Assembly (NCBI GenBank): GCA_046583355.1 | Contig: JAYGCM010000009.1 | Coordinates: 32,808 to 96,807 of the forward strand | Reading direction: 5' to 3' | Source of the DNA: Deltaproteobacteria bacterium | Lineage (GTDB): Bacteria; Desulfobacterota; Binatia; UBA12015 | DNA length: 64,000 bases | Part shown: positions 556-33,451 of the stretch, piece after piece | How the letters are laid out: each line of letters starts with the position of its first letter | Position numbering within the stretch: the stretch's first letter is position 1 | Made by a program: the position numbers and the translations under genes | Notes under the pieces: model-generated | Seen by the model: only the letters and a program-made list of their open reading frames with translations | Told to the model about the DNA's origin: nothing | Databases searched by the model: none

Positions 556-3030
556 TCAGACCTCGAGGGCGCCGCTCTTTTCGAGGTCGGCGCGCGCGGT
601 CTCGTCCAGGCCCAGCCATTGCGCAAGCACTGCCGCGTTGTCGGCACCGATCGGCCGACCGGTATCGGTCGTATGGCCCGGCGTGGCGTCCAACCCGAAG
701 CCGAGGCGGCTTGCCGCCACCTCGCCGCGGCTTGCATGCGCGATTGTTTCGAAGAAATCCCGCGCCCGCAATTGCGGGTCATACTCGCAAAGGTCGCGTA
801 CATTCTGCACCGCACCGGCAGGCACGCCGGCCGCCTGCAGAGATTCCATCACCTCTGTTTTCGTTTGCGTGGAGGTCCACCCAGTCAACAGGGCATCGAG
901 TTCCCCGGCGTGCTCGAGGCGCGCGGCAAACGAGGCAAAGCGCGCGTCGGCCTGCCATTCGGCGTGGCCCGTAGCCCGGCAAAGAGCCCGCCAATGGTCC
1001 TCATGCAGAGCGGTAATCGCGCACCAACTATCCTCGCCGGAGCAAGCGTAGAGGCCCCAAGGCGCACCGCGCGCACGGCCATTGCCCTGCGGCGCAGGCG
1101 CGCCGCCGTCGAGCGCCTGCAACATCACATCACCGATCGTCGCCACGCAGGTCTCCATCTGCGCGATGTCAATCAACTGGCCCTCGCCCGTTCGCGTGCG
1201 GTGGTCGAGCGCCGCCATGACCGCCGTAAGCCCATGCAACGCACCCACCGGGTCTGAGTAGGCGTATTGGGTGATCGTACACCCCTTGCCGGGAAACCCC
1301 GAGAGTGCCGCAAGCCCGGAGACGGCCTCCATATTCGGCCCCCAGGTCACATAGCCCGCCGCCGGCCCCTCGCGGCCGAAGCCCGAGGTGGCGAGATAGA
1401 TCAGACCGGGATTCGCGGCGGCCAGTACCTCGTAGCCAAGACCGAGACGTTCGACGACGCCAGGAACGAAGTTTTCGATGACGACATCCGCCTCAGCGGC
1501 GAGCCTTTTGGCGATCGCCAGAGCATCGGCATTTTTGAGGTCCAATCCGACGAAACGCTTGCCCGCATTCCAGTCCGTGAACCAGGGCGAGAGCACCTCG
1601 CTTACGCCCGCCTCCGGTGCCTGCGGCGAGATATACAGGCGCGTGACGTCGGCTGCCGTACGTGATTCGATCTTGACGACATCCGCACCATGGTAGGCCA
1701 TCATGCGCCCGACCCAGGGCCCGGCCATGCCGGCGGTAAATTCAAGGACCCGCAGCCCCGAGAGAGGCTCACCCGGACGGGCGGACCGGGGTGAATGAGA
1801 ATCAGCCGAATCCTCGCCGTGCGGGCGCGAAGCCTGCTGGCCAGGCGATAGCGCCCCACTGCCCGGGCTCTTCGAGTCCTGTGCCACCGCTGTGGTCCAG
1901 CCTTCCGCGCGATGCTCGCCCAACGCCGGTGCTCGGCGCGCGGCTTCCCTCGGTGCGGCTGGGAAACGGATCGGCAGGCCGGGGTAGCGCAACTCTCCGC
2001 CTGGCAGACGCGCAAAGAATCCGCGCGCCGCGAGATGCGCATCCGCCACAACTGCGGCGGCATCGTTGAGCGGCGTGATCGCAAGATGCCTCCTCTGGCC
2101 CTCAGCGTAGAGTTCCACCACCGAGTAGCGCGCGAAGAGTTCGGCCAGCCACGCATCGATCACCGGGCGAAACTCGTGACGGTTGGCCGAAGGGCCGGTA
2201 AACGCGGGGTCGAGGATCGCCTCGTTACCCGTCACCTCGGCGACCCACTGCGCAAGCGCCTGCCAATGCGCGGGACGGTTGAGGGTCAAATAAATCCGGC
2301 CGTCGCAGGCGTCCCAGACCCCGGAGGGGATCGACGCCGCCAGACTCGCGCCCTCGCGCCGTGAGATCATTTGATCTTCCCGGTAGCGCCCGGCCCCAAC
2401 GATATGCGAGACCGCCGCCATCGACTCCTGCAGCGAGACATCCACAACCTGGCCCACGCCCGTGCGGCGCGCGAGACGCCAGGCGACCATCGCACCGGCC
2501 GCAGCCGAGAGCCCAGCCATCACGCAGGCCGGGTAGCCGGCGAGTGAGACCGGCGGTTCATCGGGCCAACCGGTGGTATGCGCCGCACCCGAGAGCGCCG
2601 TAGCCACCAGATCCGACGAGAGCCAACCGCGGCGTGGGCCGTCCTGGCCGAATCCACTGATCCGCGCCATGACCAGCCGCGGGTTGTCGGCGTGCAATTC
2701 TTCGGCACCGAGCCCGAGCGATTCGAGAACGCCCGGACCACGCGTCTCCACCAGAATATCAGCGCCCGCCACCAGGTCCCGAAAGGCCGCGGCGCCGGTC
2801 GCCTGCGGCAGATCCAATACCAGGCTCTGTTTCGAGGTATTAGCGTAAAGAAACCAATAGCTCTGCGCCGGCGCGCTCGGGCGAAAGGGAGGAATCGCTC
2901 GACTGCCTTCCCCCCCGGGGGCTTCGACCTTGATTACCTCCGCGCCGAGTCCGCCGAGTAATTTACCAGCATACTCGCCCGTCTCATCGGCCAACTCGAC
3001 AACACGGATTCCGGCAAGGGGCAGACTCAT
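556..3030 (-). CDS. Tandem (duplicated) family III CoA-transferase, single chain of 824 aa
   Basis: Two CaiB/BaiF-like halves, each opening with the typical N-terminus (LAGIRVVELADETGEYAGKLLGGLGAEVIKVE and LSGLRVLEFTAGMAGPWVGRMMAYHGADVVKIE). They are joined by a low-complexity S/P/G linker. ATG at 3030 is preceded by GGAAGAGGG. Confidence 0.85.
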   Translation of the reverse strand: MSLPLAGIRVVELADETGEYAGKLLGGLGAEVIKVEAPGGEGSRAIPPFRPSAPAQSYWFLYANTSKQSLVLDLPQATGAAAFRDLVAGADILVETRGPGVLESLGLGAEELHADNPRLVMARISGFGQDGPRRGWLSSDLVATALSGAAHTTGWPDEPPVSLAGYPACVMAGLSAAAGAMVAWRLARRTGVGQVVDVSLQESMAAVSHIVGAGRYREDQMISRREGASLAASIPSGVWDACDGRIYLTLNRPAHWQALAQWVAEVTGNEAILDPAFTGPSANRHEFRPVIDAWLAELFARYSVVELYAEGQRRHLAITPLNDAAAVVADAHLAARGFFARLPGGELRYPGLPIRFPAAPREAARRAPALGEHRAEGWTTAVAQDSKSPGSGALSPGQQASRPHGEDSADSHSPRSARPGEPLSGLRVLEFTAGMAGPWVGRMMAYHGADVVKIESRTAADVTRLYISPQAPEAGVSEVLSPWFTDWNAGKRFVGLDLKNADALAIAKRLAAEADVVIENFVPGVVERLGLGYEVLAAANPGLIYLATSGFGREGPAAGYVTWGPNMEAVSGLAALSGFPGKGCTITQYAYSDPVGALHGLTAVMAALDHRTRTGEGQLIDIAQMETCVATIGDVMLQALDGGAPAPQGNGRARGAPWGLYACSGEDSWCAITALHEDHWRALCRATGHAEWQADARFASFAARLEHAGELDALLTGWTSTQTKTEVMESLQAAGVPAGAVQNVRDLCEYDPQLRARDFFETIAHASRGEVAASRLGFGLDATPGHTTDTGRPIGADNAAVLAQWLGLDETARADLEKSGALEV

Positions 3031-3141
3031 GCCCTCTTCCCGCCCACATTCCGGCGCATGATTCTACCCCGCTCGCCAGCCGCAAAAGGCCAATGCCCGG
3101 CCAGGAGCCGAGAGCGCAGAAACTCCCGCATAGGCTCCTGC

Positions 3142-4386
3142 CTAATGCTGCACCGGGCAGCCCGAAGGCCGCGTGAACTCGACCTGCATCTCTTTGATGC
3201 CGTCGATGAAATTCGAGTGCAGGAGGCGCGGTTTTTTCACTACGTGCATATCGGGGACGCGGTCGAGGAGCTCGTCGAAGATACAGGCAAGCTGCATCTT
3301 GGCGAGGTTCGCGCCGAGACAGAAATGCTCGCCGATACCGAAGGTCAAATGCGGGTTCGGGCTACGCGTGATGTCGAAGGTATCGGGGTCCTGGAAGACG
3401 TCCTCGTCGCGGTTGGCCGAGGGGTAGAACATCACGAGTTTGTCGCCCTTCTTGATTTTCTGACCGCGGATCTCCGTGTCGATCAATGCCGTGCGGCGGA
3501 ATTGCATCACCGGCGGTGCCATCCGCAGGCATTCATCGATCGCCAAGGGCAGCAACTCGCGGTTGTCGCGCAGCTGCTGGTAGGCCTCGGGATGGTCGCT
3601 CAGAAGCCGCATAATATGCGAGGTCCCGTTGCGGGTAGTCTCGTTGCCGGCCACCGAGAGCAGCACCATGAAAGAATTGAAATGGTGCTCGGTGATCTTC
3701 TCGCCGTCGACCTCGCCGTTGATCATCTTGCTGATCAGCGTATCGTCCGGGTTTGCCTTCTTCTCCTCGGCCAGAGTGCTTGCGTAGGTATAGAGCTCTA
3801 TGGCCGCTGCCTGACCGTCGTTGGGCGCACCGAATTCTTCATCGTCGGTGGCAATCAACCGATTCGACCAATCAAAAATCTTCTTGCGGTCTTCGAGCGG
3901 AATTCCCATCAGCTCACAGATGAGGATCAAGGGCAGCTCGGACGCGAGCTCTTCGACGAACTCGCAGGAGTCTTTCTCGGCGAGTTCGTCCACAATGCGC
4001 TTGGCGTGCGCGCGAATCTTCGGCTCGATCTCCCGGACCATGCGCGGCGTGAAGACGCGCTGTAGAAGCCTGCGATACTTGACGTGCTCAGGCGGGTCCA
4101 TGCCGATCAGGCTCTCGCGCTGACCGGCGAGGTCATCCCCCTCCATATCGAATATAAAAGGCAGCCCCTCCCAGGAGGAGAAGACCTTCGGGTTGCGCGA
4201 GATCGCAAACACATCTTCGTGCTTGGTGATCACCCAGAAGCTTTTGGTAATGCGGAACTCCGCAGCCGAGGCCGGCACTTCCTGCCAATGCACGGGGTCC
4301 TCGCGGCGCAGCATGCGGAAGTATTCGTGCGGGAAACCCTCGTCGTAGGCCGCGGGTAGGTAGAGTTCGATATCGCCTAGCTTCAT
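3142..4386 (-). CDS. Cytochrome P450
   Basis: Heme-binding FGIGEHFCLGANLA, I-helix AGNETT and K-helix ECLR (ExxR). ATG at 4386 (MKLGDIELY); the listed ORF start at 4398 is a TTG alternative. Confidence 0.9.
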   Translation of the reverse strand: MKLGDIELYLPAAYDEGFPHEYFRMLRREDPVHWQEVPASAAEFRITKSFWVITKHEDVFAISRNPKVFSSWEGLPFIFDMEGDDLAGQRESLIGMDPPEHVKYRRLLQRVFTPRMVREIEPKIRAHAKRIVDELAEKDSCEFVEELASELPLILICELMGIPLEDRKKIFDWSNRLIATDDEEFGAPNDGQAAAIELYTYASTLAEEKKANPDDTLISKMINGEVDGEKITEHHFNSFMVLLSVAGNETTRNGTSHIMRLLSDHPEAYQQLRDNRELLPLAIDECLRMAPPVMQFRRTALIDTEIRGQKIKKGDKLVMFYPSANRDEDVFQDPDTFDITRSPNPHLTFGIGEHFCLGANLAKMQLACIFDELLDRVPDMHVVKKPRLLHSNFIDGIKEMQVEFTRPSGCPVQH

Positions 4387-4398
4387 GCGCTCTTCCAA

Positions 4399-5363: not shown

Positions 5364-7163
5364 ATGATGAAATCAAAAATGATGGTACTCGCGTTGCTGA
5401 TCCCCGCGGTCGGCATGGTGGCTGGTTGTGGCGGGTCGAGCGACCCCTACACCGGCCTTGTCCCGCAGCCGACCGCCGAGCCCGGCCCCGAGCCGACGCC
5501 CGAACCGACGGCCGCACCCGAGCCGACCGCCGAGCCGGTTGACCCGGACTGCCCCGACCCCGCGTTCCCCAGCACCTATGCGGCAATTCAGGAAATCGTC
5601 TTTCAGCGTAACGGCTGTGCCGGTACGACCTGCCACGGCGACGCCATGGCAGGCGGCCTCGACCTTCGCGAAGGCGTCTCCTACGGCAACCTCTTAGAGG
5701 CCGACGCCACCTCATCGGACCTCTTCCGGGTCCATCCCGGCGACCGGATGCGCAGCGAACTCTGGCGCCGCCTCGACGCAACCAACGACGATTCCATCGT
5801 AATCGCCGGCGCACCGATGCCGATTGGCCTGCCGCCGCTCGACGCCGACACCATGGAGCTGGTGCGTTTGTGGATTCTCGCCGGCGCGCCGGAAGGCGGC
5901 ACCGTCCTGGACACCGAGGATCTCATCGACGGCTGCCTGCCTGCCCCGGAGCCCATCGCGATCGCGCCGCTGGCGCCGCTGGCTTCCGGCGCCGGCGTCC
6001 AATTCCAGATGCCTTCCTGGATCCTGCCCGCCGCCAGTGAAAACGAAATCTGTTTCGCTGTCTGGCTCGATTTCACCGACCAGGTCCCCGAGGACTTCCT
6101 CTCCGACGACGGCAATTTCTTCTTCTACGACCAATACGAAATCCGCCAGGACTCCAACAGCCACCATCTCCTGATGCAGGTTCCCACCGCCTCCTGGAGC
6201 GGCACGATTCTCGAACCCGATGTTCTGGAAGGCTGGACCTGTTCGGCCGGTAGCGCGAACGCGGGCGCGAGCTGCGACGCAAAAGATACCGAGGCCTGTG
6301 ACGGCGGCTTCTGCCGTTCGAAGATCGAAGAAACCAGTGGCTGCAACGGCTACGGCCCGGGCGGCGCGGCTACCCCGACGGTCTTCTCCGGCACCCAGCA
6401 GGCGAATTTCATCCGCACGAACTACCCGGGCGTTTACAGCCGCGTGCCGATCAAGGGCATTTTCTACTTCAACTCACACGCCTTCAACCTGACGGCGAAA
6501 GACGCCCTGATGCATGCACGCGCGAACTTCCGCTTCGCCACTCAGCGTGACTACCCGATGCGCAATCATAGCGACGGCATCTTCGGCATCCCGCGGCTGA
6601 TTGCCGAGGGCGCCCCGCCCTATACCACCAGGGAAATGTGCGATGACTGGGTATTACCGAAGGGAGCACGTCTCACCGCCTTGAGCTCGCATACCCACAA
6701 ACACGGCAAACATTGGTGGTATGACCTCCCCGACGGCGAGCGAATCTACGACTCCTATACCTACAACGACCCGCTGCAGAAGTACTTCGACCCGCCCATG
6801 GCCTTCGACCAGGACGATCCCGAAGACCGCCGGATCAGCTGGTGCTCGCTCTACAATAATGGCGTCGACGCAGACGGCAACGACGACCCCAGCCAGGTGA
6901 CCCGCGCCTCGAAGATTCAATACGGCATCCGTGGCTTCGGCCTGGGCGGCAGCTTCGGACGCTGCGAGCCCAGCCGTTGCATCAACGAAGGCCGCACCCA
7001 TATCCAATGCAACGACGGCATCAGTAACTTCAAAGGCGATGACGCCGAATGCGATTCCTCGCCGGGCGCTGGCGACGGGTTCTGTGATGCCTGCCGCATC
7101 ACCGGTGGCGTGACAACCGAGAACGAAATGTTCGGCCCGAACATCGCTTATTTCGTTCCCTGA
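5364..7163 (+). CDS. Secreted lipoprotein: PSCyt1-like CX4CH module plus PHM/DBH-like copper monooxygenase-type domains (putative)
   Basis: Lipoprotein signal MMKSKMMVLALLIPAVGMVAGC followed by a PEPT-rich linker. CAGTTCHG...GGLDL...MP...LVRLWILAGAPEG resembles the planctomycete cytochrome c domain. Ligand-like series: HH (6162-6167), H (6477), HTH (6690-6698) and TTENEMF (Met 7128). Confidence 0.6.
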   Translation: MMKSKMMVLALLIPAVGMVAGCGGSSDPYTGLVPQPTAEPGPEPTPEPTAAPEPTAEPVDPDCPDPAFPSTYAAIQEIVFQRNGCAGTTCHGDAMAGGLDLREGVSYGNLLEADATSSDLFRVHPGDRMRSELWRRLDATNDDSIVIAGAPMPIGLPPLDADTMELVRLWILAGAPEGGTVLDTEDLIDGCLPAPEPIAIAPLAPLASGAGVQFQMPSWILPAASENEICFAVWLDFTDQVPEDFLSDDGNFFFYDQYEIRQDSNSHHLLMQVPTASWSGTILEPDVLEGWTCSAGSANAGASCDAKDTEACDGGFCRSKIEETSGCNGYGPGGAATPTVFSGTQQANFIRTNYPGVYSRVPIKGIFYFNSHAFNLTAKDALMHARANFRFATQRDYPMRNHSDGIFGIPRLIAEGAPPYTTREMCDDWVLPKGARLTALSSHTHKHGKHWWYDLPDGERIYDSYTYNDPLQKYFDPPMAFDQDDPEDRRISWCSLYNNGVDADGNDDPSQVTRASKIQYGIRGFGLGGSFGRCEPSRCINEGRTHIQCNDGISNFKGDDAECDSSPGAGDGFCDACRITGGVTTENEMFGPNIAYFVP

Positions 7164-7188: not shown

Positions 7189-7228
7189 GGCCCGTAGCGC
7201 TGTTTCGCGCTGCGGGCTTTTTCTTTTT
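7189..7228 (+). terminator. Rho-independent terminator after the lipoprotein gene
   Basis: Stem GGCCCGTAGCGC / GCGCTGCGGGC with one G-U pair and a 6-nt loop, followed by TTTTTCTTTTT. Confidence 0.75.
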
Positions 7229-7260
7229 CAGCAGACCAATTGCCCCGCAAGGAGACCCTC

Positions 7261-7911
7261 ATGGCCAAGATGGAAGATGGATTCGGCAAGCCGGATGAAG
7301 TGCGTATCTTCGTCGAGGCGAATGCCGAGCGCGGCAATGCCGCAAGCGTCCTCGCCACGCTCGATCGCTACGCCGAAGAGCATTTTTTCCTCATGAACGT
7401 CGGCCCCGAAAAGGGCCCGCTACTTACCACCGAAGTCGACAAAATCGGTCCGGCGGCGCGCATCATCGAGCTCGGCAGCTATTGCGGCTACTCGGCCGTG
7501 CTGATCGCCCAGCGGCTCGACGCAAGCGGGCATCTGGTTTGTGTCGAGCTCGACCCGGAAGCCGTGCGTGGCACCCGCGCCACGGTCGAATTCGCCGGGC
7601 TGGCCGACCGTGTCGAGGTGATCGAGGGCGCCTCGGGCGATATCATCCCGACACTCGACGGTAGCTTTGACCTGGTCTTCCTCGACCATTGGAAAGACCT
7701 CTACGAGGAAGATCTCAAAGCGTTCGAGGCCCGCGGGCTGCTGCACAAAGGCTCAGTTATCTTCGCCGACAACGTCGGCCCGAGCTTCAACCCCGAGAGC
7801 TACCTCAATTATGTGCGGACGAGCGGTAAATACGACTCGACGCACCACCTCTCGACCATCGAATACACCGATATGCCGGACGCGGCCGAAGTCTCTATCT
7901 ACCGCGGCTGA
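7261..7911 (+). CDS. Catechol O-methyltransferase-like class I SAM methyltransferase
   Basis: ELGSYCGYSAVLIAQRL (SAM motif I), FDLVFLDHWKDLY and VIFADNVGP match the animal COMT motifs (FLDHWKDRY, LLADNV). ATG 7261 has an AAGGAGA RBS; the listed start 7240 is TTG. Confidence 0.85.
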   Translation: MAKMEDGFGKPDEVRIFVEANAERGNAASVLATLDRYAEEHFFLMNVGPEKGPLLTTEVDKIGPAARIIELGSYCGYSAVLIAQRLDASGHLVCVELDPEAVRGTRATVEFAGLADRVEVIEGASGDIIPTLDGSFDLVFLDHWKDLYEEDLKAFEARGLLHKGSVIFADNVGPSFNPESYLNYVRTSGKYDSTHHLSTIEYTDMPDAAEVSIYRG

Positions 7912-8057: not shown

Positions 8058-9737
8058 TCAGGAGCGCCCGCGGCCACCGGAGCCCGAACCGCCCGTGCGG
8101 CCGCGCCCTGCGCTATGCCTACTGCCGCCACCGGCGCCTCGGCCATCGGGCGTATGATGCGCACGCGCATTGCCTTGGCTGCCCGAACCATAGCGGCGAC
8201 GCTCGCCGCCACCTTCGCTGCTCGCGCCGTAGCGACGGCGTTCGCCGCCACCTTCGCTGCTCGCACCGTAGCGACGGCGTTCGCCGCCACTCTCGTTGCC
8301 GGAGCCATAACGACGACGCTCGCCCTCATTGCCGGCACCATCGCGACGACGCCCGCCCTCATTGCTGGCACCATCGCGACGGCGCTCGCCGCCACCTTCG
8401 CTGCTCGCGCCATAGCGACGACCTGAGCCGCCGGCGCCGGCGCCGCTGCGCTGGCCGCCGGAGCGCTCATCACGCCTTGCCTGGCCCGAATTGCCCCGAC
8501 CTTGGCTCTGGCTCTGCCGCACGCCCTCGCGCGAGGCGGCCTTCTTCTTCGACTTCATGGCCGATCGGCTGACGACGATCGGTTCGTCGTCGAACCCCTC
8601 GAAGAACATGCGCTCGATCTCGGCACCCAGGTAGCGCTCGGTATCGCGGACCCATTCGGCATCTTCGCGAGTGACGAAGGTACGCGCCTTGCCGCTCTCA
8701 TCGGAGCGACCGGTGCGGCCGATACGATGGGTGTAATTCTCCGGCGTGCTCGGCGGATCGAAGTTGATCACATAAGAGACGCCGGCCACATCGAGACCAC
8801 GAGCGGCAATATCGGTCGCGACCAGAATATCGTATTTGCCGCGACGGAAGCCTTCCATCGCGCGGTCGCGCTGGGCCTGCGACATATTGCCCTGCAGGGC
8901 AACGGCGCTATGGCCCTCTTTGGCGAGCTTCGTCGCCATATGACGCGCGCGGTGCTTGGTGCGCGTGAATATGATCGCCGTGCGGCAATCTTCCTCGGCA
9001 AGCATGCGGTCGAGAAGGTCGCGCTTTTGCTCGGCCGGCACGGGACAAAGAGCATGCTCGATGCGATCGGCCGGGGCGGAATGCGCCAACTCGACAACCT
9101 GCGGGTTGTAGAGGATACGGTCTGCCAGCAGACGAATCTCCTTGGGCATGGTGGCCGAGAAGAGAAGATTCTGGCGCTTCTCCGGCGTGGCACCCAGGAT
9201 GCGCTTCACGTCCGGGAGAAAGCCCATATCAAACATATGGTCGGCCTCGTCGATGACGACCTGCTCGATACGCGAGAGGTCCAGCACGCCCTGCTTGAGC
9301 AGGTCGAGCACGCGGCCGGGGCAACCGACGACGATTTCAGGGCTGCGACGCAGCGCTTCGGCCTGCATGCGGATCGACTTGCCGCCGTAGACGGTAACCG
9401 TGCGGATACGGGTGAATTTCGCCAGCAGGCGGATCTCGGTGTCGATCTGGTTGGCAAGCTCGCGGGTCGGGGCGAGGATCAGAGCCAGCGGGCCCTTGCC
9501 CTGGTGCTGGACCCGGCGTTGCAGGATCGGCAGCGCAAAAGCCGCCGTCTTGCCGGTGCCGGTTTGGGCCAGGCCAAGGACATCGCGGCCTTCGAGACCA
9601 GCCGGAATGGTGTCGGATTGAATCGCGCGAGGGGTGACAAAGCCAGCCTCTGTAAGGCCTTTTTGCAAGGATACGTGTAAGTCGAAGGACTCGAAGCCGG
9701 GCACGGCCTCGGGGTTCAGGGGTTCGTTAGTGGACAA
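8058..9737 (-). CDS. DEAD-box ATP-dependent RNA helicase with RGG/RRYG repeat tail
   Basis: Q-motif region (GFVTPRAIQ), AQTGTGKT, DEAD (VIDEADHM), SAT and HRIGRTGR. Proposed TTG start at 9737 with GGAGA 7 nt upstream. The upstream part of the listed 650-aa ORF looks non-coding. Confidence 0.9.
   Translation of the reverse strand: MSTNEPLNPEAVPGFESFDLHVSLQKGLTEAGFVTPRAIQSDTIPAGLEGRDVLGLAQTGTGKTAAFALPILQRRVQHQGKGPLALILAPTRELANQIDTEIRLLAKFTRIRTVTVYGGKSIRMQAEALRRSPEIVVGCPGRVLDLLKQGVLDLSRIEQVVIDEADHMFDMGFLPDVKRILGATPEKRQNLLFSATMPKEIRLLADRILYNPQVVELAHSAPADRIEHALCPVPAEQKRDLLDRMLAEEDCRTAIIFTRTKHRARHMATKLAKEGHSAVALQGNMSQAQRDRAMEGFRRGKYDILVATDIAARGLDVAGVSYVINFDPPSTPENYTHRIGRTGRSDESGKARTFVTREDAEWVRDTERYLGAEIERMFFEGFDDEPIVVSRSAMKSKKKAASREGVRQSQSQGRGNSGQARRDERSGGQRSGAGAGGSGRRYGASSEGGGERRRDGASNEGGRRRDGAGNEGERRRYGSGNESGGERRRYGASSEGGGERRRYGASSEGGGERRRYGSGSQGNARAHHTPDGRGAGGGSRHSAGRGRTGGSGSGGRGRS
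8170..8425 (-). repeat. In-frame ~39-nt tandem repeat encoding (GGERRRYGASSEG)n in the helicase C-terminal tail
   Basis: The protein tail reads ...GGGERRRDGASNEGGRRRDGAGNEGERRRYGSGNESGGERRRYGASSEGGGERRRYGASSEGGGERRRYGSGS..., and the nucleotide periodicity is visible. Boundaries are approximate. Confidence 0.7.
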
Positions 9738-9970
9738 TGTAAATCTCCGCCGCAGGATGCACGCGTGCGTACAGAACGGCTGTTGGTTCTGACCCACACA
9801 ACAGCCGGGGGCAAGACATAATGAAAAAGCGATGAGACCTCGATCTTCAGACGAGAGGTCCTGTTGTTCACCGCATCGGCCCGCCGCGAAAACGCGTACG
9901 GGGTGTTCCGTATGACCCGACCATACCACCACCACCCCCCAAACGCCAGCCACAAAAAGCCCCCCCAGAA
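9738..9970 (-). promoter_or_regulatory. Long, lower-G+C 5' leader/promoter region of the DEAD-box helicase
   Basis: More than 230 nt with no credible coding signal between the repeat block at 9971 and the helicase start. Long structured leaders are typical of cold-shock-type DEAD-box helicase genes, so this is inference. Confidence 0.4.
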
Positions 9971-10048
9971 AAGGGGACAGACTCAGGTGCACGTCCCCTG
10001 AAGGGAACAAGGGGACGGATTCAGGTACACGTCCCCTGAAGGGGACAG
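9971..10048. repeat. Tandem pair of 38-nt hairpin units (GGGGAC-N14-GTCCCC); same family as 51411-51506
   Basis: Units are 9971-10008 and 10009-10046. The reverse complement of 10009-10036 matches 51427-51454 at 27 of 28 positions. Confidence 0.8.
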
Positions 10049-15784: not shown

Positions 15785-15934
15785 CGGCGTTCAGAATGGT
15801 CTGCAAGACAATGCAGGGAGACCATCGCCCCAAGGCATTCGCCCGGGCAGCAGTGCTGGGTTATGGAAGAGAAGACGCCTGTTCAGTGAGCAGGGTCGTA
15901 CCTCCAACTTTTGACGACGCGGGAATTCGGATTG

Positions 15935-17509
15935 ATGGAAGAGACCATACCGGCATTGGTGCAGGCAGCAGGGCAGCGCTTTGGCGACGCCTCGGCCATT
16001 GAAGACGGCGAGCGCCGGTTCAGCTTTCGCGAGTTGGCTGCCGCAGGCCTGGCGGCCGGGCGCGCGTTTCGCGCAGCCGGCCTGCAGCGCGGCGAGCGGG
16101 CCGCGATCTGGGCACCGAATTATTCAGAATGGATTGTCGCGGCCATCGGCATACAATCGGCCGGCGGCGTGCTGGTGCCGCTCAATACGCGGCTCAAGGC
16201 AGGCGAGGCGGCCTACGTTCTGGGCACCAGCGGGGCCAAGATCCTCTGTACGGTCAGCGATTTTCTCGGCGTCGATTACGCAGCCGAGATTCAGAAGCAG
16301 GATCTGCCGGAGTTGGAGCAAATCATCACCTTCCGCGGCTCCTCGGCGGGCGCACAGACCTGGGAGGATTTCCTCAGCGGCGGCGAGGCGGTCCCGACGG
16401 CCACCATCGAGGCCGAGATCGCAGCGCTCACGGGCGACGATCTCTCCGACATCCTCTTTACCTCGGGTACCACCGGCAAACCCAAAGGCGTGATGACGGC
16501 GCATGGCCAGAACCTCAAAGCTTTTGAGTGCTGGTCGGGTTTCGTCGGCCTGCGCGAGGGCGACCGCTATCTCATCGTCAACCCATTTTTTCATGCCTTT
16601 GGCTACAAGGCGGGTTGGGTATCGGCCATTATGCGCGGTGCGACGATTCTGCCGCAGGTCACCTTTGATGTCCCGGAGATCCTCGCGCGGATCGGGCCCG
16701 ATCGCATCACCATGCTGCCCGGCCCGCCCACCATCTACCAGACGATTCTGGCCCACCCCGACCTCGAGAAATACGATATATCGTCCTTGCGCCTGGCCGC
16801 TACGGGGGCCGCCGCCATCCCCGTCGAGCTGATCCGCCAGATGCACGACAAGCTCGGATTTACGACTGTCCTCACAGGTTATGGCCTGACCGAGACCTGC
16901 GGCGTCGTCACCATGTGCCGCGAAGGCGACGATGCCGAGACGATCGCCACGACCTCCGGGCGACCGGTCCCCGATGTCGAGGTGCGATTGGTGGATACCG
17001 AGGGCAACGATGTCGCCACCGGCGAGCCGGGTGAGGTCATCGTGCGCGGCTACAACGTCATGCGCGGGTATTTCAACAATCCCGAAGAGACCGCCGCCAC
17101 AATCGACGCCGACGGTTTCCTGCATACCGGCGATATTGCCGTGGCCGACGCGGACTTCAACCTCCGCATCACCGATCGCATCAAAGATATGTTCATCATG
17201 GGTGGCTTCAATTGCTACCCGGCCGAAATCGAGAACGCGCTCTACGATAGTGGCCTGGTGGCCCAGGTGGCCGTGATCGGCGTGCCCGACAAACGCATGG
17301 GCGAGGTCGGCATGGCCTTCGTCGTGCCGGCGCCGGGCAGCGATATCAGCCCTGCTTCCGTGGTTGCCTGGAGTCGGGAAAATATGGCGAACTACAAAGT
17401 GCCTCGCTACGTCGAGCTGGTCGATTCCCTGCCGACCAACGCATCGGGCAAGGTAACCAAATTCGTCTTGCGCGAGCGGGCCGAGAAAATTCTGGACACC
17501 CAGGAGTAG
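15935..17509 (+). CDS. AMP-dependent acyl-CoA synthetase/ligase
   Basis: AMP-binding motif ILFTSGTTGKPKGV, plus GYGLTE, TGDIA and KVPRYVELVDSLPTNASGKV. Confidence 0.9.
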   Translation: MEETIPALVQAAGQRFGDASAIEDGERRFSFRELAAAGLAAGRAFRAAGLQRGERAAIWAPNYSEWIVAAIGIQSAGGVLVPLNTRLKAGEAAYVLGTSGAKILCTVSDFLGVDYAAEIQKQDLPELEQIITFRGSSAGAQTWEDFLSGGEAVPTATIEAEIAALTGDDLSDILFTSGTTGKPKGVMTAHGQNLKAFECWSGFVGLREGDRYLIVNPFFHAFGYKAGWVSAIMRGATILPQVTFDVPEILARIGPDRITMLPGPPTIYQTILAHPDLEKYDISSLRLAATGAAAIPVELIRQMHDKLGFTTVLTGYGLTETCGVVTMCREGDDAETIATTSGRPVPDVEVRLVDTEGNDVATGEPGEVIVRGYNVMRGYFNNPEETAATIDADGFLHTGDIAVADADFNLRITDRIKDMFIMGGFNCYPAEIENALYDSGLVAQVAVIGVPDKRMGEVGMAFVVPAPGSDISPASVVAWSRENMANYKVPRYVELVDSLPTNASGKVTKFVLRERAEKILDTQE

Positions 17510-17513
17510 CCGC

Positions 17514-19109
17514 ATGTCGCGCTTGAAAACCGAGAATTTGCTGGCCGCCGGGAGCCTCTGGGGGCTGATTGAGAAACGCGCCGCCGCCACGCCCGATGCC
17601 CTTTTTGCGGTCGATGAAAACGACCGCGAGCTGACCTTCCAAGGCTACCGCGATGCTTGTGAGCGGGCTGCGGCCGGGCTGATGGCGCATGGCGTCGCCA
17701 CCGGCACGCATGTCTCGTGGATGCTGCCGACCTGGTTTGAGTCGATGGTGCTGGTGGGCGCGCTGGCGCGTCTCGGCGCGGTGCAGAACCCGATCCTGCC
17801 GATCTACCGGCATAAAGAGGTCGGCTTCATCGCGCAGCAATTCGATACCAAGCTGCTGATTTTGCCGCCGGCCAATGAAAAATTCGACTACCCGCAGATG
17901 GGCCAGGATCTCCAGGCCGAGCGTAAAGGCATGGCCGTGCTGGTCTGCGACCATGCGCTACCCGAAGGCGACCCCGCCGCCCTGCCGGCCAAGCCGGCGG
18001 AAACCAACGACGCCGACGCACCTATGCGCTGGGTCTTCTACAGCTCTGGCACCACGGCCGACCCCAAGGGCGCCCTGCATACGGATCTTACGCTTTACGC
18101 GTCAGCGCGCGGCATGGCCGCCTGCCTGCACCTCGACCCGAGCGACCGCGTGGCCTTGGTCTTTCCCTTCACGCACGTCGGCGGGATCGGCTGGCTGGGC
18201 AGCGTCCTCGCGTCAGGCGCGGCCTTCATCGTCGTGCCGGCATTCAACGCCAAGACAACGCCTGAGGTGCTCGCGCGCCACGGTGTGACCCAGGCCACCG
18301 CCGGTACGGCCTTCCACCAGGCCTACCTGGCGGCGCAGAGGGCACGCCGCGCGGCCGGCGACGACTCGCCGCTCTTCGCGCAGGTGCGCAGCTTTCCCGG
18401 TGGCGGCGCGCCCAAGCCACCGCAACTTCATACCGAGTTGCGCGAAGAGATGGGCGGTGTCGGTATCGTCTCGGGCTACGGCATGACCGAATGCCCGATC
18501 ATGACGATGGCGGCGATCACCGACCCAGCCGAGGCGCTGGCCAATACCGAAGGCAAGGCATCGCCGCCGGAGGTCGAATTTCGCATCGTCACCTTGGCCG
18601 GCCCCGACGCCGGACTCGGCGAAGAAGGCGAGATCCGGGTAAAGGCGCCGCAGCTCTGCCGCGGCTATCTGGAGGAGTCGCTCAACGAAAAAGCCTGGGA
18701 CGAAAAGGGCTTCTTCCATACCGGCGACCTCGGCCACCTGGATGCAGACGGCTTTCTCACCATCACCAGGCGCTTGAAGGATGTGATCATCCGCAAGGGT
18801 GAGAATATCAGCGCCAAGGAAGTCGAAGACCTGCTCTACGAGCACGAATTGGTCGAAGATGTCGCGGTGATCGGCGTCCCCGATGCCGACACCGGCGAGC
18901 GTGCGTGTGCCATCGTGCAGACGCCTGCGGGCAAAGAAGCCCTCGGCTTCGCCGCCATGGTTGCCTGGCTGAAGGGACGTGGGCTGATGAACCAGAAGAT
19001 CCCCGAGCAGCTCGAGGTGCTCGCGCTGGTGCCGCGCAACGCGACCGGCAAGATCGACAAAAAGGGCCTGCGCGAGACCTACAAGGATTCGCCGCGACCG
19101 CCACGATGA
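17514..19109 (+). CDS. AMP-dependent acyl-CoA synthetase/ligase (second, divergent copy)
   Basis: FYSSGTTADPKGALHT, SGYGMTE, HTGDLG and ATGKIDKKGL. RBS CAGGAG. Confidence 0.9.
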   Translation: MSRLKTENLLAAGSLWGLIEKRAAATPDALFAVDENDRELTFQGYRDACERAAAGLMAHGVATGTHVSWMLPTWFESMVLVGALARLGAVQNPILPIYRHKEVGFIAQQFDTKLLILPPANEKFDYPQMGQDLQAERKGMAVLVCDHALPEGDPAALPAKPAETNDADAPMRWVFYSSGTTADPKGALHTDLTLYASARGMAACLHLDPSDRVALVFPFTHVGGIGWLGSVLASGAAFIVVPAFNAKTTPEVLARHGVTQATAGTAFHQAYLAAQRARRAAGDDSPLFAQVRSFPGGGAPKPPQLHTELREEMGGVGIVSGYGMTECPIMTMAAITDPAEALANTEGKASPPEVEFRIVTLAGPDAGLGEEGEIRVKAPQLCRGYLEESLNEKAWDEKGFFHTGDLGHLDADGFLTITRRLKDVIIRKGENISAKEVEDLLYEHELVEDVAVIGVPDADTGERACAIVQTPAGKEALGFAAMVAWLKGRGLMNQKIPEQLEVLALVPRNATGKIDKKGLRETYKDSPRPPR

Positions 19110-29054: not shown

Positions 29055-29774
29055 GTGATGGCTGAACCGCCTGCGATCCGCACCGACGCGCTAAGCAAGA
29101 ACTTCGGCAGCCGGCGCGTCCTGCACCGGCTTGAGCTCGAAGTCGCCAGCGGCGAATGCCTCGGCCTGCTGGGTGGCAATGGCGCGGGCAAGAGTACATT
29201 GCTGCGCCTGCTGGCCGGCAGCTCGCGCCCGGCAGCCGGCAGCGTTGCCCTTTTCGGCGTCGACGCACATGGCGACGACGCCCGAACCATCCGGCGCCGT
29301 CTCGGCTTTGTCGGCCATGAGGGCATGGTCTACCGCGACCTGAGCCCGCGCGAGAACCTCGAGGTCTTCGCCCGCCTCTACGGCTGCGATGAAATTGATG
29401 CTGACGCTCTGCTTGCGCGCGTCGGACTCGGCCGCGTCGGCAAGCGCGCCACCCGCACACTCTCGCGTGGCATGTTGCAGCGCCTGGCCCTGGCGCGCGC
29501 CACCTTGCACGAACCCGACCTTCTTTTGCTCGACGAGCCCTTCACCGGCCTCGACGAAAGCGGCACCGAGATGCTGCGCGAATTGCTGCGCGCCCATCAC
29601 GCGCGCGGCGGCACCATATTGCTGATCAGCCACGCACTGAGCGAAATCGCCGCGCTCTGCACGCGTGTCGTCGTATTGGCGCGCGGCCGTTTATGCGCCG
29701 AGATTCAGCCCGTCCCGGAAATGGCCGAATTGCGTACCCGCTACCGCAAAGCACTCGCGGAGGCGCAGACCTGA
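29055..29774 (+). CDS. ccmA: Heme exporter ABC ATP-binding protein CcmA
   Basis: Walker A GGNGAGKST, signature LSRGMLQRLALA and Walker B LLLLDEP. It is followed by ccmB/C/D. Confidence 0.8.
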   Translation: MMAEPPAIRTDALSKNFGSRRVLHRLELEVASGECLGLLGGNGAGKSTLLRLLAGSSRPAAGSVALFGVDAHGDDARTIRRRLGFVGHEGMVYRDLSPRENLEVFARLYGCDEIDADALLARVGLGRVGKRATRTLSRGMLQRLALARATLHEPDLLLLDEPFTGLDESGTEMLRELLRAHHARGGTILLISHALSEIAALCTRVVVLARGRLCAEIQPVPEMAELRTRYRKALAEAQT

Positions 29775-30433
29775 TGTGGCAAATTGCCCGCAAGGACCTG
29801 CTGATCGAATGGCGCACGGGGGAAATTCTCGCCTCGATGCTTCTTCTCTCGGTGCTGATCGTGCTCGTTTTTGCCTTCACGCTCGAACCTTCCCGACTGC
29901 ACGGACCGGCCATCCTCGGCGGCCTGCTCTGGGCGACGCTGCTTTTCTCGGGCACAGTGGCGCTCAACCGCTCGTTTCTCCTCGAGCGCGAGGGTGGTGC
30001 CTGGACGGCATTGGCGCTGGCGCCGCTCGACCGCGGCTCGATCTTTCTCGGCAAGATGCTCGCCAATCTGGTGCTCCTGCTGCTGGGTGCTGCGGTGCTC
30101 CTGCCGCTGATGATGCTGCTGCTCGGCACCAAAGATCTCGCACCCAATGCCTTGCTGCCCGCCTCCCTGGTTCTGGGCATGATCGGCTTTGCCGCCATCG
30201 GCACGCTCTTCGCGGCCATGGCAAGCCGCACGCGAGCGCGCGAAGTGCTCATGCCGCTGCTCACTTTCCCCCTGCTGGCGCCGCTGCTCATCGCCGCCGC
30301 CCGTACCACCACGGCCGGGCTCATTGGCGAGCCGCTTTCGGCCGTTCGGTCCTGGCTTCTGCTGCTCGTGGCCTTTGATCTTGTATTCACGGTAGCTGGC
30401 TGGTTGTTTTTCGATCATGTCCTTGAAGACTGA
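29774..30433 (+). CDS. ccmB: Heme exporter protein CcmB
   Basis: ATGA-type overlap with ccmA. MWQIARKDLLIEWRTGE and six TM segments. Confidence 0.8.
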   Translation: MWQIARKDLLIEWRTGEILASMLLLSVLIVLVFAFTLEPSRLHGPAILGGLLWATLLFSGTVALNRSFLLEREGGAWTALALAPLDRGSIFLGKMLANLVLLLLGAAVLLPLMMLLLGTKDLAPNALLPASLVLGMIGFAAIGTLFAAMASRTRAREVLMPLLTFPLLAPLLIAAARTTTAGLIGEPLSAVRSWLLLLVAFDLVFTVAGWLFFDHVLED

Positions 30434-31130
30434 ACCTGGCCGCGCGCACCCCTGGCGCGATACCGCCCTGCCGGCGCTGACCGGCATCTTCATGCTGGCG
30501 GCCATCATCCTCATCTTCTTCGTCGTGCCCAACGAGAAGGTCCAAGGCGTCGCGCAGCGAATCTTCTACTTCCACGTCCACCTGGCCTGGATGGCCTTCG
30601 GTGGTTTCGTATTTGTCGCGATTGCCAGCGTGCAATTTCTTCGCACCGGCAGCCAGCGGGCCAGCCAATTGGCCTTGGCCAATGCCGAGGTCGGCCTGCT
30701 CTTCACCACTTTGGTTCTGGTCACCGGCTCGATCTGGGCACGACCGATCTGGGGTGTGTGGTGGACCTGGGACCCGCGCCTCACGATGAGCATCGTTCTA
30801 TGGGCGATCTACGCCGCCTACCTGATGCTCCGACGCGTGGGCCACGGCGACGAGACCATCCAGCGCTACGCCGCCGTGCTCGGCATCGTCGGCACGCTCG
30901 ATATCCCGCTCCTGATCCTGGCCATCCGGCTCTGGCGTGGCATCCACCCGGCCGTGATGCTCTCGGACGACCCCGAGGCCGGCCTGCGCGACGTCACCAT
31001 GATCTGGGCGCTCGCGATCTCGGGCGTTGCTCTGGCCCTTCTCTTTACCTGGCTCGTCTCCTTGCGCGCTCGCTACGCCGCGATCGACGACAAGCTCGAA
31101 GCCCTGCACCTGGAGGATTCCTACACATGA
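30417..31130 (+). CDS. ccmC: Heme exporter protein CcmC
   Basis: Tryptophan-rich motif WARPIWGVWWTWDPRLT, plus FYFHV. Confidence 0.9.
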   Translation: MSLKTEPGRAHPWRDTALPALTGIFMLAAIILIFFVVPNEKVQGVAQRIFYFHVHLAWMAFGGFVFVAIASVQFLRTGSQRASQLALANAEVGLLFTTLVLVTGSIWARPIWGVWWTWDPRLTMSIVLWAIYAAYLMLRRVGHGDETIQRYAAVLGIVGTLDIPLLILAIRLWRGIHPAVMLSDDPEAGLRDVTMIWALAISGVALALLFTWLVSLRARYAAIDDKLEALHLEDSYT

Positions 31131-31427: not shown

Positions 31428-33257
31428 TCAGCTGATCTCGAGGCCCGCGAGGCCACCGGCCTGGCGCCAATCTTCCAGGATCTGGAAGAATTTCACCGAG
31501 CCGCCGCCGTAGAAACCGTTCTGGCCGCTACGTTCTCCGGGGCGACCCTCATTGTTATAATAACCCGGTGTGCATTGTTCGAGGAACTCCTGGCCGTCAC
31601 GGGCCAGTGAAATGATCGTCTCGACCCACTCCGACTCGGCCTCCTCAGAGACCTCAAGACGGGTCACATCCTTTTCCTGCGCGTGACGCACGATCCAGGC
31701 GATATGGCTTGCCTGCTCGCTGAGGGCATGCGGGAAATTCACCGTGAAAGCCGACTGCGTGTTGCTGACAATGAAGCAATTCGGAAAGCCCCGGCTATGC
31801 ATGCCGTGCAAGGTACGAACGCCATCGGCCCATTTCTCCGAGAGGTTCACGCCCTCGCTGCCGAGGAGTTCGTAGCCGGAGCGGCGTACATACGAGGTTC
31901 CCACTTCGAAGCCGGTGGCGTAGATCAAACAATCGACTTCGTATTCCTTGCCGTCCACGACGACACCGGTCGCGGTAATCCGCTCGACGCCCTGGCCCTG
32001 CGTGTCGACCAGTTCGACGCCGGGCCGGTTGAAGGTGCCCAGGTAATCATCGGCGAAGCAGGGGCGCTTGCAGAATTGGCGGTACCAGGGCTTGAGCGCC
32101 TCGGCGGCGGCCGGATCGTTCACGGCGGCCTCGACGCGAGCGCGGATCTCGTTCATCTTCTCGAAATCGGCTAGCTCCATCGTTCGCTTGAGGTTGGCGG
32201 GAGAGAAATCGACATTCTCGTCGCTCTGCACCATGACGAGAAGCTTGCGGATGATATCGGTCCAGCCGTCGCTCACCAGATCCTCTTCCTGGTAGCCGCC
32301 AGAGACAAGGATATTGAAATTATCCATTCGTTTCTGGTGCCAGCCCGGCTCCAGACTCGCGGCCCATTCGGCATCCGTGGGCCGGTTGTTGCGGGCGTCA
32401 ACCGAGGAAGGCGTGCGCTGGAAGACATAGAGTTTCTCGGCGGCCGCGCCGAGATGCGGCACGCATTGGATGGCCGTCGCCCCGGTGCCGATGACCCCAA
32501 CGCGCTTGCCGGCCAGCTTCGTCAGACCGCCGGTCGAGTCGCCACCCGTATAATCATAATCCCAACGACTGGTGTGGAAGGTATGGCCCTTGAAGTCCGC
32601 GACACCGGGAATGCCCGGCAGCTTGGGGCGGTGCAAGGGGCCGTTGGCCATGGCGACGAAGCGTGCGCGGATCTTGTCCTGGCGGTTGGTCGAGATAATC
32701 CAACGCCGCGACTCCTCCTCCCAACGCATCTCCGTGACCTCGGTCTGGAAACAAGCATCGCGGTAGAGATCGAATTTCCGGGCAATCGTCTTGCAATGGT
32801 CGAGGATCTCGGGCGCGCCCACATATTTCTCGCTCGGCAACGCCCCGGTTTCCTCCAGAAGCGGCAGATAGACATAGGCCTCAACGTCGCAGCGCGCGCC
32901 GGGGTAGCGGTTCCAATACCAAGTCCCGCCGAAATCGCCGCCCTTCTCAATGATGCGTACGTCTTCGATACCGGCTTCGCGCAGGCGCGCACCGATCAGC
33001 AAGCCGCCGAGGCCGCCGCCGATAACGACCACTTCGACCTCATCTTCAAGAGGCTCACGGCTGAACTCCGGCGTAACGTAGGGGTCGTCAACGAAGCTCG
33101 CGAAATCTCCCGTGATCTCGATATATTGCTCGTTGCCCTCAGGCCGAACGCGGCGATCGCGCTCGATGCGGTATTTTTTCCGCAGAGCGTCGACGTCAAT
33201 TTTCGCCTTGGCGTCGATCGTTTCGTTTGCTGCTATATCAGTCTCTGCGCCTGCCAT
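31428..33257 (-). CDS. Type I Baeyer-Villiger monooxygenase (flavin/NADPH dependent)
   Basis: VVVIGGGLGGL...GGTWYWNRYPGARCD, BVMO fingerprint FKGHTFHTSRWD and second Rossmann VGVIGTGATAIQ. ATG 33257 has a GGGAGAG RBS; the upstream part of the listed 772-aa ORF was judged non-coding. Confidence 0.9.
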   Translation of the reverse strand: MAGAETDIAANETIDAKAKIDVDALRKKYRIERDRRVRPEGNEQYIEITGDFASFVDDPYVTPEFSREPLEDEVEVVVIGGGLGGLLIGARLREAGIEDVRIIEKGGDFGGTWYWNRYPGARCDVEAYVYLPLLEETGALPSEKYVGAPEILDHCKTIARKFDLYRDACFQTEVTEMRWEEESRRWIISTNRQDKIRARFVAMANGPLHRPKLPGIPGVADFKGHTFHTSRWDYDYTGGDSTGGLTKLAGKRVGVIGTGATAIQCVPHLGAAAEKLYVFQRTPSSVDARNNRPTDAEWAASLEPGWHQKRMDNFNILVSGGYQEEDLVSDGWTDIIRKLLVMVQSDENVDFSPANLKRTMELADFEKMNEIRARVEAAVNDPAAAEALKPWYRQFCKRPCFADDYLGTFNRPGVELVDTQGQGVERITATGVVVDGKEYEVDCLIYATGFEVGTSYVRRSGYELLGSEGVNLSEKWADGVRTLHGMHSRGFPNCFIVSNTQSAFTVNFPHALSEQASHIAWIVRHAQEKDVTRLEVSEEAESEWVETIISLARDGQEFLEQCTPGYYNNEGRPGERSGQNGFYGGGSVKFFQILEDWRQAGGLAGLEIS

Positions 33258-33451
33258 GATGATCTCTCCCTTGGTGCGTTCCCCTTGAGCATCGCAGAAG
33301 CCGCCGTGATTTTTCACCCCCCGATCGCATGATCGGTCAATCGCGGTGCTTGAGCGACCACCTGACCCTGCGCGCTGCTCGTCAGCCCGCGCAGCAACCG
33401 AAGGGCCCGGCCCGGCTTGCGGTGGAATCCGTGGTGCAGCAAGCTCCACGC

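Follow-up and report, generated by a model that had tools for sequence, protein, structure and literature searches.

The gene examined here occupies positions 5364..7163 (+) of a 64,000-nucleotide stretch (the window) of contig JAYGCM010000009.1, from a Deltaproteobacteria bacterium of the Binatia lineage. It is a complete open reading frame (ORF), closed by a stop codon at 7161-7163 (+), whose translation is a 599-amino acid lipoprotein with a cytochrome-c-like module in front of a core resembling the two-copper enzymes peptidylglycine alpha-hydroxylating monooxygenase (PHM) and dopamine beta-hydroxylase (DBH). The start at 5364 is supported by a Shine-Dalgarno-like element (GAGGGA) about 12 nucleotides 5' of the ATG, and the N-terminus is common to the homologues gathered in an alignment of 46 sequences (alignment A1; 41-84% identity to the window protein). 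A first-pass annotation of this DNA had proposed the same pairing of a heme-c-like module with a PHM/DBH-type copper core. Its observation proved real and its reading largely right in both halves, and every motif it had listed lies in the translated ORF exactly where it had been placed.

The protein begins with a signal peptide of the Sec/signal peptidase II type (5364..5429 (+)) that ends in a lipobox (MMKSKMMVLALLIPAVGMVAG-C22, with VAG preceding the cysteine), and C22 is invariant in A1. It is followed by a Pro/Glu/Thr-rich (PEPT) tether covering residues 23-62 (5430..5549 (+)), so that the lipobox and linker of the first-pass annotation are both in place. The tether is predicted to be disordered, residues 14-56 having a predicted local distance difference test score (pLDDT) below 50 in an AlphaFold2 (AF2) model, and it gave only low-complexity matches (PARP, TonB and SslE linkers) in Pfam, NCBIfam and PDB-sequence searches. 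With this export signal, the window protein is predicted to be an exported, lipid-anchored lipoprotein.

The AF2 model, built on A1, has a mean pLDDT of 86.6 and a predicted template modelling score of 0.82. Beyond the tether it consists of a helical module (residues 63-185) and two beta-sandwiches (residues 205-599). Because the linker between module and core (residues 181-220) is modelled at pLDDT 94-97, the model suggests that the two are held in a fixed interdomain arrangement. When the model was searched against the PDB with Foldseek, the top 30 matches were all DBH or PHM (E 2e-10 to 4e-6, probability 1.0). Human DBH (4ZEL) was the best of them at E 2e-10, and 28 were rat PHM entries (E 6e-9 to 4e-6) with template modelling (TM) scores of up to 0.62 on PHM length. 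Below DBH and PHM the matches fell sharply to generic double jelly rolls (PM2/PRD1 capsid, PNGase F-like; E >1e-5, TM about 0.2), which are already known as remote relatives within this fold clan (PMC8812541). The structural similarity to PHM and DBH that the first-pass annotation had predicted was thus recovered, and the core is modelled as two antiparallel beta-sandwich (jelly-roll) subdomains of the PHM/DBH superfamily type.

In PHM and DBH, the CuH site (three His) is the electron entry, and the CuM site (two His and one Met) binds O2 and abstracts substrate hydrogen in the cleft between the domains. The N-terminal sandwich of the window protein (residues ~205-400; 5976..6563 (+)) is the CuH subdomain according to the Foldseek matches to DBH and PHM and to the profile alignments described below. 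Likewise, the C-terminal sandwich (residues ~401-599; 6564..7160 (+)) is assigned as the CuM subdomain from Foldseek, from weak Cu2_monoox_C matches and from a bridge family. With PHM numbering fixed by comparing the rat PHM core with PDB sequences, H267-H268 (6162..6167 (+)) correspond to the CuH ligands H107/H108 and H372 in FNSHAFN (6477..6479 (+)) to H172. H443-T-H445 in SSHTHKHGK (6690..6698 (+)) corresponds to the CuM ligands H242/H244, and M589 in TTENEMF (7128..7130 (+)) to M314. As the first-pass annotation had noticed, the single His and the HxH pair are 71 residues apart (H372-H443), against 70 in PHM.

Sequence homology of the window protein to PHM could be established only transitively, because the protein falls below the Pfam thresholds while a compact sister family clears that of Cu2_monoox_C (PF03712). 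One member of this compact family, P0241, is a 450-amino acid lipoprotein encoded next to the target-family homologue P0008 in an 8.1-Mb genome (L087:9828-11177 (-)), and it scores 25.4 bits against a PF03712 gathering threshold of 23. At least 303 homologues belong with it, most of them carrying a precomputed PF03712 annotation. BLASTP connects the window protein with P0241 in two segments, one running from the heme module to SHH (E 1e-17) and the other pairing NSHAFN/SHTHKHGK with QTHFVN/GHYHYRGR (E 2e-7). At the profile level, hhalign joins A1 to the compact-family alignment (A4) with 99.95% probability (E 1.1e-37, 401 columns), and A4 to animal PHM with 95.1% probability (E 3.4e-8, 254 columns). 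The compact proteins are uncharacterized. They share with the target family the host taxa, the lipobox (a lipobox-like motif is found in 99 of 120 compact and 81 of 120 target-family proteins), the CX4CH module and the PHM-like core, but are only about 450 amino acids long, and Pfam detects them whereas it misses the target family.

Across this bridge the ligands fall into register. H267/H268 align with H204/H205 of the compact family and H107/H108 of PHM, H372 with H268 and H172 (NSHAFN, QTHFVN and QVHY in the three families), and H443/H445 with H337/H339 and H242/H244. M589 pairs with H413 of the compact family and M314 of PHM, and here the C-terminal motif was aligned directly between target family and PHM. 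Direct alignments to PHM are short, yet all are in register and collinear: SHHL pairs with HHML, C...SHTHKHGK with C...HTHHLGK, and GDG.CDAC...GG.TTENEMF..YF with GDILAARC...GGTSSDEMCNLYIMYY, the last in keeping with the proposed likeness between T.ENEMF and the context of the PHM CuM methionine. Invariant C230, C426 and C494 align with the PHM disulfide cysteines C81, C227 and C293. All six ligands proposed in the first-pass annotation thus have an aligned PHM counterpart, and the sets H267/H268/H372 and H443/H445/M589 are, by alignment, equivalent to the CuH and CuM ligands of PHM and predict two copper sites.

C22, C85, C90, H91, M152, P153, H267, H268, H372, H443, H445 and M589 are invariant in A1. 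In a wider count of 119 full-length target-family members, the heme-type motif and HxH are present in all, while HH is found in 118, the third His in 117 and the Met in 115. With this invariance and with 115-119 of 119 members agreeing, the motif pattern is, at the level of sequence, not a chance one, and the conservation of the His/Met residues and of the heme-type motif among homologues holds as proposed. Sixteen further cysteines are likewise invariant in A1, an even number that would allow eight disulfides to form once the protein is exported. Several of them lie in two Cys-rich insertions that lengthen the other two intervals between ligands, as had been claimed. Insertion 1 (6240..6344 (+)) contains C293, C304, C312, C317 and C327, all five invariant, and appears as a gap in the A1-A4 alignment; the interval from HH to H is 104 residues in the window protein, 64 in PHM and 63 in the compact family. 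Insertion 2 (6963..7094 (+); CDSSPGAGDGxCDAC) contains C534, C539, C549, C563, C574 and C577, all six invariant, and is absent from PHM and the compact family; the interval from HxH to Met is 144 residues, compared with 70 in PHM and 74 in the compact family.

The helical module (residues 63-191; 5550..5936 (+)) is flanked by invariant C63 and C191 and was assigned as cytochrome-c-like (PSCyt1-like) from the domain model and from cytochrome matches of its paralogues. It carries a CX4CH motif (C85 AGTT C90 H91; 5616..5636 (+)) as putative heme-c attachment site, in which C, C and H are invariant, and M152-P153 (5817..5822 (+)), invariant in A1 and A4 and part of a PMP...W motif, whose Met is a candidate for the distal (axial) ligand. 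Attachment of heme c through CX4CH is established, if less common (PMC11492766). The first-pass annotation had set it apart from canonical CXXCH, which holds for the window protein and for 112 of the 119 members but not for the remaining 7, which have CXXCH. In A1 the canonical form occurs in 5 of the 46 paralogues, at the same column as CX4CH elsewhere. These five match PSCyt1 (PF07635) across nearly its whole 59-position profile at 15.5-21.9 bits (cut-off 22), and in two of them the same stretch also matches Cytochrome_CBB3, a class-I model. The longer member P0369 reaches 22.1 bits for PSCyt1.

The module was compared further. In the window family it aligns in hhalign (A1-A4) to that of the compact family, which in turn gives local matches (E 3e-6 to 2e-3) to TIGR03806 ("SO2930 family diheme c-type cytochrome"), in the second of its heme domains. 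Fourteen of the 46 A1 members also match CTI, a heme-c protein, through this module. In Pseudomonas cytochrome c551, the axial-Met PMP loop (IPMPPN) and the C-terminal helix follow the same order as M152-P153 and the ...LRLWI helix downstream of it; c551 was the sole PDB sequence that the module profile retrieved, and its E of 1.5 is non-significant. The CX4CH/CXXCH interchange, the paralogue scores and the TIGR03806 match support the PSCyt1-like module of the first-pass annotation. PSCyt1 ("Planctomycete cytochrome C") and class-I cytochromes c such as c551 share with the module an N-terminal helix ending in Cys-Cys-His, a later PMP and a C-terminal helix with a conserved Trp. They differ from it in that 94% of target-family members have CX4CH, in length (59-82 amino acids versus about 125 in the target family) and, for PSCyt1, in the fusion of the target module to a copper enzyme. 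Typical partners of planctomycete PSCyt1 proteins are of the PSD1/DUF1553 type.

The window also encodes ccmA, ccmB and ccmC of System I cytochrome c maturation (29055-31130 (+)), in overlapping reading frames and with a WWD motif at 30750. Because these genes are present, the host is predicted to be able to mature c-type cytochromes. The heme-export cluster of the first-pass annotation is therefore there as ccmABC, although a specific link to the gene was rejected, the two being about 22 kb apart and the cluster general housekeeping for any cytochrome c.

The family is large. In an exhaustive HMMER search of 1.84 billion representative sequences the number of clusters rose from 367 (E<=1e-30) through 3,219 (E<=1e-10) to 11,261 (E<=1e-3), and at least 413 loci with relatives were found in GTDB species representatives. 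The best 80 loci (L006-L085) stem from only about 21 metagenome-assembled genomes (MAGs), single MAGs contributing 6 to 11 of these each, which puts the expansion at 11 or more copies in a Binatia-type MAG; MAGs rich in copies include Co_bin.122, K_DeepCast_65m_m2_035 and OFTM293 (Binatia-type). Hosts are labelled Candidatus Binatia, "Deltaproteobacteria", Thermodesulfobacteriota and similar. Three loci (L016, L041 and L078; contigs CAMBZJ01...), all of 70-72% GC, are family copies in one MAG that bears the title "Klebsiella pneumoniae isolate LH-02apr19-159"; the Klebsiella label of that assembly is almost certainly wrong. Tandem duplication was rejected as the source of paralogy, as it was seen at only 3 of 85 loci and the copies are dispersed, and a search for a second family copy within the 64-kb window found none besides the one described.

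Some members are extended. P0371, P0369, P0370, P0414 and P0434 have an added N-terminal class-I cytochrome c, DUF4215 Cys-rich repeats or a C-terminal PQQ-like beta-propeller, and EF-hand and dockerin models match two sampled members each. The additional upstream Cytochrome_CBB3 domain of P0371 (26.8 bits) is what might be expected, by analogy, of a heme relay.

On this evidence we propose that the window protein is a self-contained redox enzyme, in which a divergent PHM/DBH-type two-copper monooxygenase would be fed by the cytochrome c fused to it. We regard this as a reasonably probable reading, in which the presence of heme and copper, the direction taken by the electrons, the monooxygenase chemistry and the nature of the substrate are all inferred. 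A mono-heme module of the class-I cytochrome c type would sit rigidly ahead of the CuH subdomain. C85-x4-C90 would attach its heme, for which H91 would be the proximal and M152 the likely distal ligand. It would take single electrons from a periplasmic respiratory carrier and hand them to CuH (H267, H268, H372), the presumed electron-transfer site. CuM (H443, H445, M589) would be the site that activates O2 and hydroxylates the substrate. Once two electrons had reached the copper pair, O2 would react on CuM and a C-H bond of an extracytoplasmic substrate would be hydroxylated, the heme-delivered electrons standing in for the ascorbate of the animal enzymes.

Turnover of PHM and DBH takes two single-electron reductions, supplied in animals by ascorbate. 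To our knowledge, use of ascorbate is not expected of the host bacteria, and the fused heme, not vitamin C, is the probable source of the electrons. A heme-fed CuH is the most economical reading of an exported lipoprotein that has a rigidly fused cytochrome ahead of its CuH subdomain and whose host would not be expected to use ascorbate. Tethered hemes that give single electrons to mononuclear copper are found in cytochrome-c-fused copper nitrite reductases and in cellobiose dehydrogenase, whose cytochrome domain feeds LPMO. The likeness to these systems is one of concept alone; their folds and chemistries are unrelated and no homology is claimed.

The comparison with the animal enzymes shows what is kept and what differs. 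With PHM, the catalytic core of PAM (PDB 1PHM, 1SDW, 3MLL), the window protein has in common the two-beta-sandwich core (E 6e-9), CuH HH...H and CuM HxH...M in the same order, three disulfide cysteine positions and the motifs T..DEM/T.ENEM and HTHxxGK. It differs in having only about 12% identity, in its two Cys-rich insertions (about 40 and 70 amino acids) and in having no PAL partner domain, and PHM depends on soluble ascorbate whereas the window protein, a lipoprotein from a bacterium, has a heme-c-like module at its N-terminus. DBH, like the related TBM and MOXD, has the same ligand sets, and both DBH and the window protein have an extra domain N-terminal to the core. In DBH, however, this domain is a DOMON beta-sandwich instead of a cytochrome-c-like module, and DBH, a secretory glycoprotein of eukaryotes, depends on ascorbate and has a dimerization domain.

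Several results weigh against the proposal of a heme-fed PHM/DBH-type monooxygenase. The Pfam scan suggested in the first-pass annotation was negative for the window protein, which at E<=10 matched neither PSCyt1 (PF07635) nor Cu2_monooxygen (PF01082) nor Cu2_monoox_C (PF03712). NCBIfam and PDB-sequence searches with it returned the low-complexity linker matches alone, and the profile of the 46-member family found nothing among PDB sequences. Weak Cu2_monoox_C matches occur in 11 of the 46 aligned members, the best Pfam score for PF01082 or PF03712 in the family being E 0.086. Compared directly with rat PHM, or with an animal PHM profile of 32 members (A2), the family gives hhalign and HMM matches that are individually non-significant (E 0.03-0.2). 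Foldseek of the isolated heme-module model (pLDDT 88.9) against the PDB retrieved no cytochrome and nothing below E 4; apo models of small cytochromes are poor structure-search queries.

The anchors that bind the substrate carboxylate in PHM (R240, N316 and Y318) are not kept either. S441 occupies the R240 position, the rest are variable in A1, and the residues after M589 vary among members (F-x-x-x). Because this anchor is absent, the window protein is, by sequence comparison, no PHM orthologue, and its substrate is predicted not to be peptidyl-glycine (a glycine-extended peptide). In the compact family an invariant His (motif NEHC; 116 of 118 members) replaces the CuM Met, and since a sister family makes this exchange, chemistry across the superfamily may differ from that of PHM. 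Met314 is regarded as essential in PHM. By its sequence, the compact family, which also lacks both Cys-rich insertions, is a natural His3 "CuM" variant. Finally, an all-vs-all clustering of ORFs from 3 long contigs and 85 loci revealed no conserved neighbor or operon, the best non-self cluster being present in at most 11 of the 85 loci, some of them duplicates.

Because there are no such conserved neighbors and a weak terminator-like hairpin with a T-run (7204-7225 (+)) separates the target stop codon from the next gene, the gene looks monocistronic, and its context offers no substrate clue. That next gene, at 7240-7911 (+), encodes a catechol-O-methyltransferase-like protein (Methyltransf_3). 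An operon-based function, including a DBH-plus-COMT-like pairing, was rejected, as the adjacency is common only with one 83%-identical orthologue; the TauE/O-methyltransferase/P450 context of the window recurs solely beside that orthologue.

The surroundings of the gene (556-4398 (-), 15911-19109 (+) and 31428-33746 (-)) are rich in lipid and xenobiotic oxidation genes, among them a duplicated-domain family III CoA-transferase (824 amino acids), a cytochrome P450, two adjacent acyl-CoA synthetases and an FMO/Baeyer-Villiger-like flavoprotein with an N-terminal extension of about 235 amino acids. They fit a Binatia-like hydrocarbon and fatty-acid lifestyle, and none is conserved beside family members. 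Binatota are reported to live aerobically on C1 compounds and alkanes and to have many hydroxylases, in an account where the present family goes unmentioned (PMC8262859). The window further encodes a DEAD-box RNA helicase (8058-10010 (-)) with an unusually long C-terminal tail of about 150 amino acids made of degenerate Arg/Gly-rich repeats (GGERRRYGASSEGGGERRR).

Three other explanations deserve consideration. Electrons could flow in reverse, the copper core acting as an oxidase or dehydrogenase of a periplasmic substrate and delivering electrons through heme c to the respiratory chain. Cytochrome c domains fused to periplasmic enzymes are often electron outlets, and those of quinohemoprotein alcohol dehydrogenases pass electrons to the respiratory chain. 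The PQQ-like beta-propeller of the long member P0414 and the lack of a conserved reductase partner in the neighborhoods would also suit this explanation, as would hosts that are respiratory, versatile oxidizers (PMC8262859). It is harder to reconcile with the strict conservation, throughout the target family, of the His3/His2Met ligand set of PHM, DBH and TBM. All characterized members of the PHM/DBH fold known to us (PHM, DBH and TBM) are O2-activating monooxygenases with that set, and a His2Met CuM site is specialized for Cu(I)-O2 chemistry. Reverse flow thus seems unlikely to us. Slightly less likely still is that the N-terminal module binds no heme and has a structural or substrate-binding role, its CX4CH cysteines forming a disulfide or a metal site and the PHM-like core receiving electrons from a diffusible reductant. 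That the window protein matches no cytochrome model, that the search with the isolated module was negative and the c551 match non-significant, and that PSCyt1 is itself an uncharacterized Pfam domain would agree with this, but the invariant C, C and H, the interchange of CX4CH and CXXCH at one column and the invariant Met-Pro motif would not. PSCyt1 matches near or above threshold and those to Cytochrome_CBB3 and TIGR03806 argue for heme as well, as do the export of the protein and the presence of ccm genes; moreover, the other 16 invariant cysteines pair evenly without C85 and C90.

The protein could also be no enzyme at all, and instead a surface lipoprotein that binds or buffers copper, or a double jelly roll binding carbohydrates or other ligands like relatives of PNGase F and carbohydrate-binding modules. 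Its fold clan does include non-redox proteins (PNGase F and other double jelly rolls), seen here as the weaker Foldseek matches (PMC8812541). In addition, the function of the protein is a prediction from sequence and model, and many paralogues are also typical of surface binding proteins. Nevertheless, PHM and DBH score 4-5 orders of magnitude above the PNGase F-like matches, with TM 0.5-0.62 versus about 0.2, and six strictly invariant catalytic ligands with a redox module attached, maintained over hundreds of divergent paralogues, are hard to explain without catalysis. A non-catalytic role is therefore quite improbable. Ligand conservation and the cytochrome evidence make all three explanations less likely than a monooxygenase fed by its own cytochrome c.

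The target family was not found described in the literature, which was searched for homologues of PHM/DBH in bacteria, for fusions with cytochromes, for PSCyt1 and by Pfam accession; the PHM/DBH Pfam names turned up solely in animal papers. The first-pass annotation, which knew of no characterized fusion of a heme-c-like module to a copper monooxygenase core, agrees with what the searchable literature holds. A 2022 fold survey places the PHM family in eukaryotes, with PNGase F as the bacterial counterpart (PMC8812541). At least 120 listed homologues are all "hypothetical protein" or unnamed and without a relevant Pfam domain, and the invisibility of the target family to Pfam and NCBIfam is an annotation gap. 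Already known are the catalytic kind of PHM and DBH, the cytochrome c/PSCyt1 kind of module and the PF03712 tag on the compact family. New are the fusion itself, the CX4CH form of the heme motif, an implied supply of electrons independent of ascorbate, the size and paralogy of the bacterial radiation, and the failure of Pfam and NCBIfam to register the target family.

The expansion of paralogues and the family-specific Cys-rich insertions suggest diversified extracytoplasmic substrates. Tentatively, the family may represent a large and so far overlooked bacterial class of ascorbate-independent two-copper C-H hydroxylases coupled to the respiratory chain, with a built-in cytochrome c in place of ascorbate and cytochrome b561. 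Binatia and allied uncultured lineages might then hold dozens of specificities per genome, for example toward hydrocarbons, lipids and other recalcitrant organics, and the sister family with its Met-to-His exchange would offer a second, natural His3-CuM chemistry.

Non-coupled binuclear copper monooxygenases of the PHM/DBH type are textbook animal enzymes that make noradrenaline and amidated peptide hormones. By homology, bacterial protein clusters numbering in the thousands contain their catalytic machinery, with a cytochrome c built in. If the proposal is correct, these proteins would provide a genetically tractable, ascorbate-free bacterial model with heme-triggered electron delivery to CuH, which would bear on the old question of how electrons cross the ~11 Å from CuH to CuM. 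They would also help to explain how the neuropeptide and catecholamine enzymes of animals arose in evolution. For the globally distributed, uncultured bacteria that oxidize hydrocarbons and C1 compounds, the family would mean an expanded set of extracytoplasmic C-H hydroxylases, some of them possible biocatalysts.

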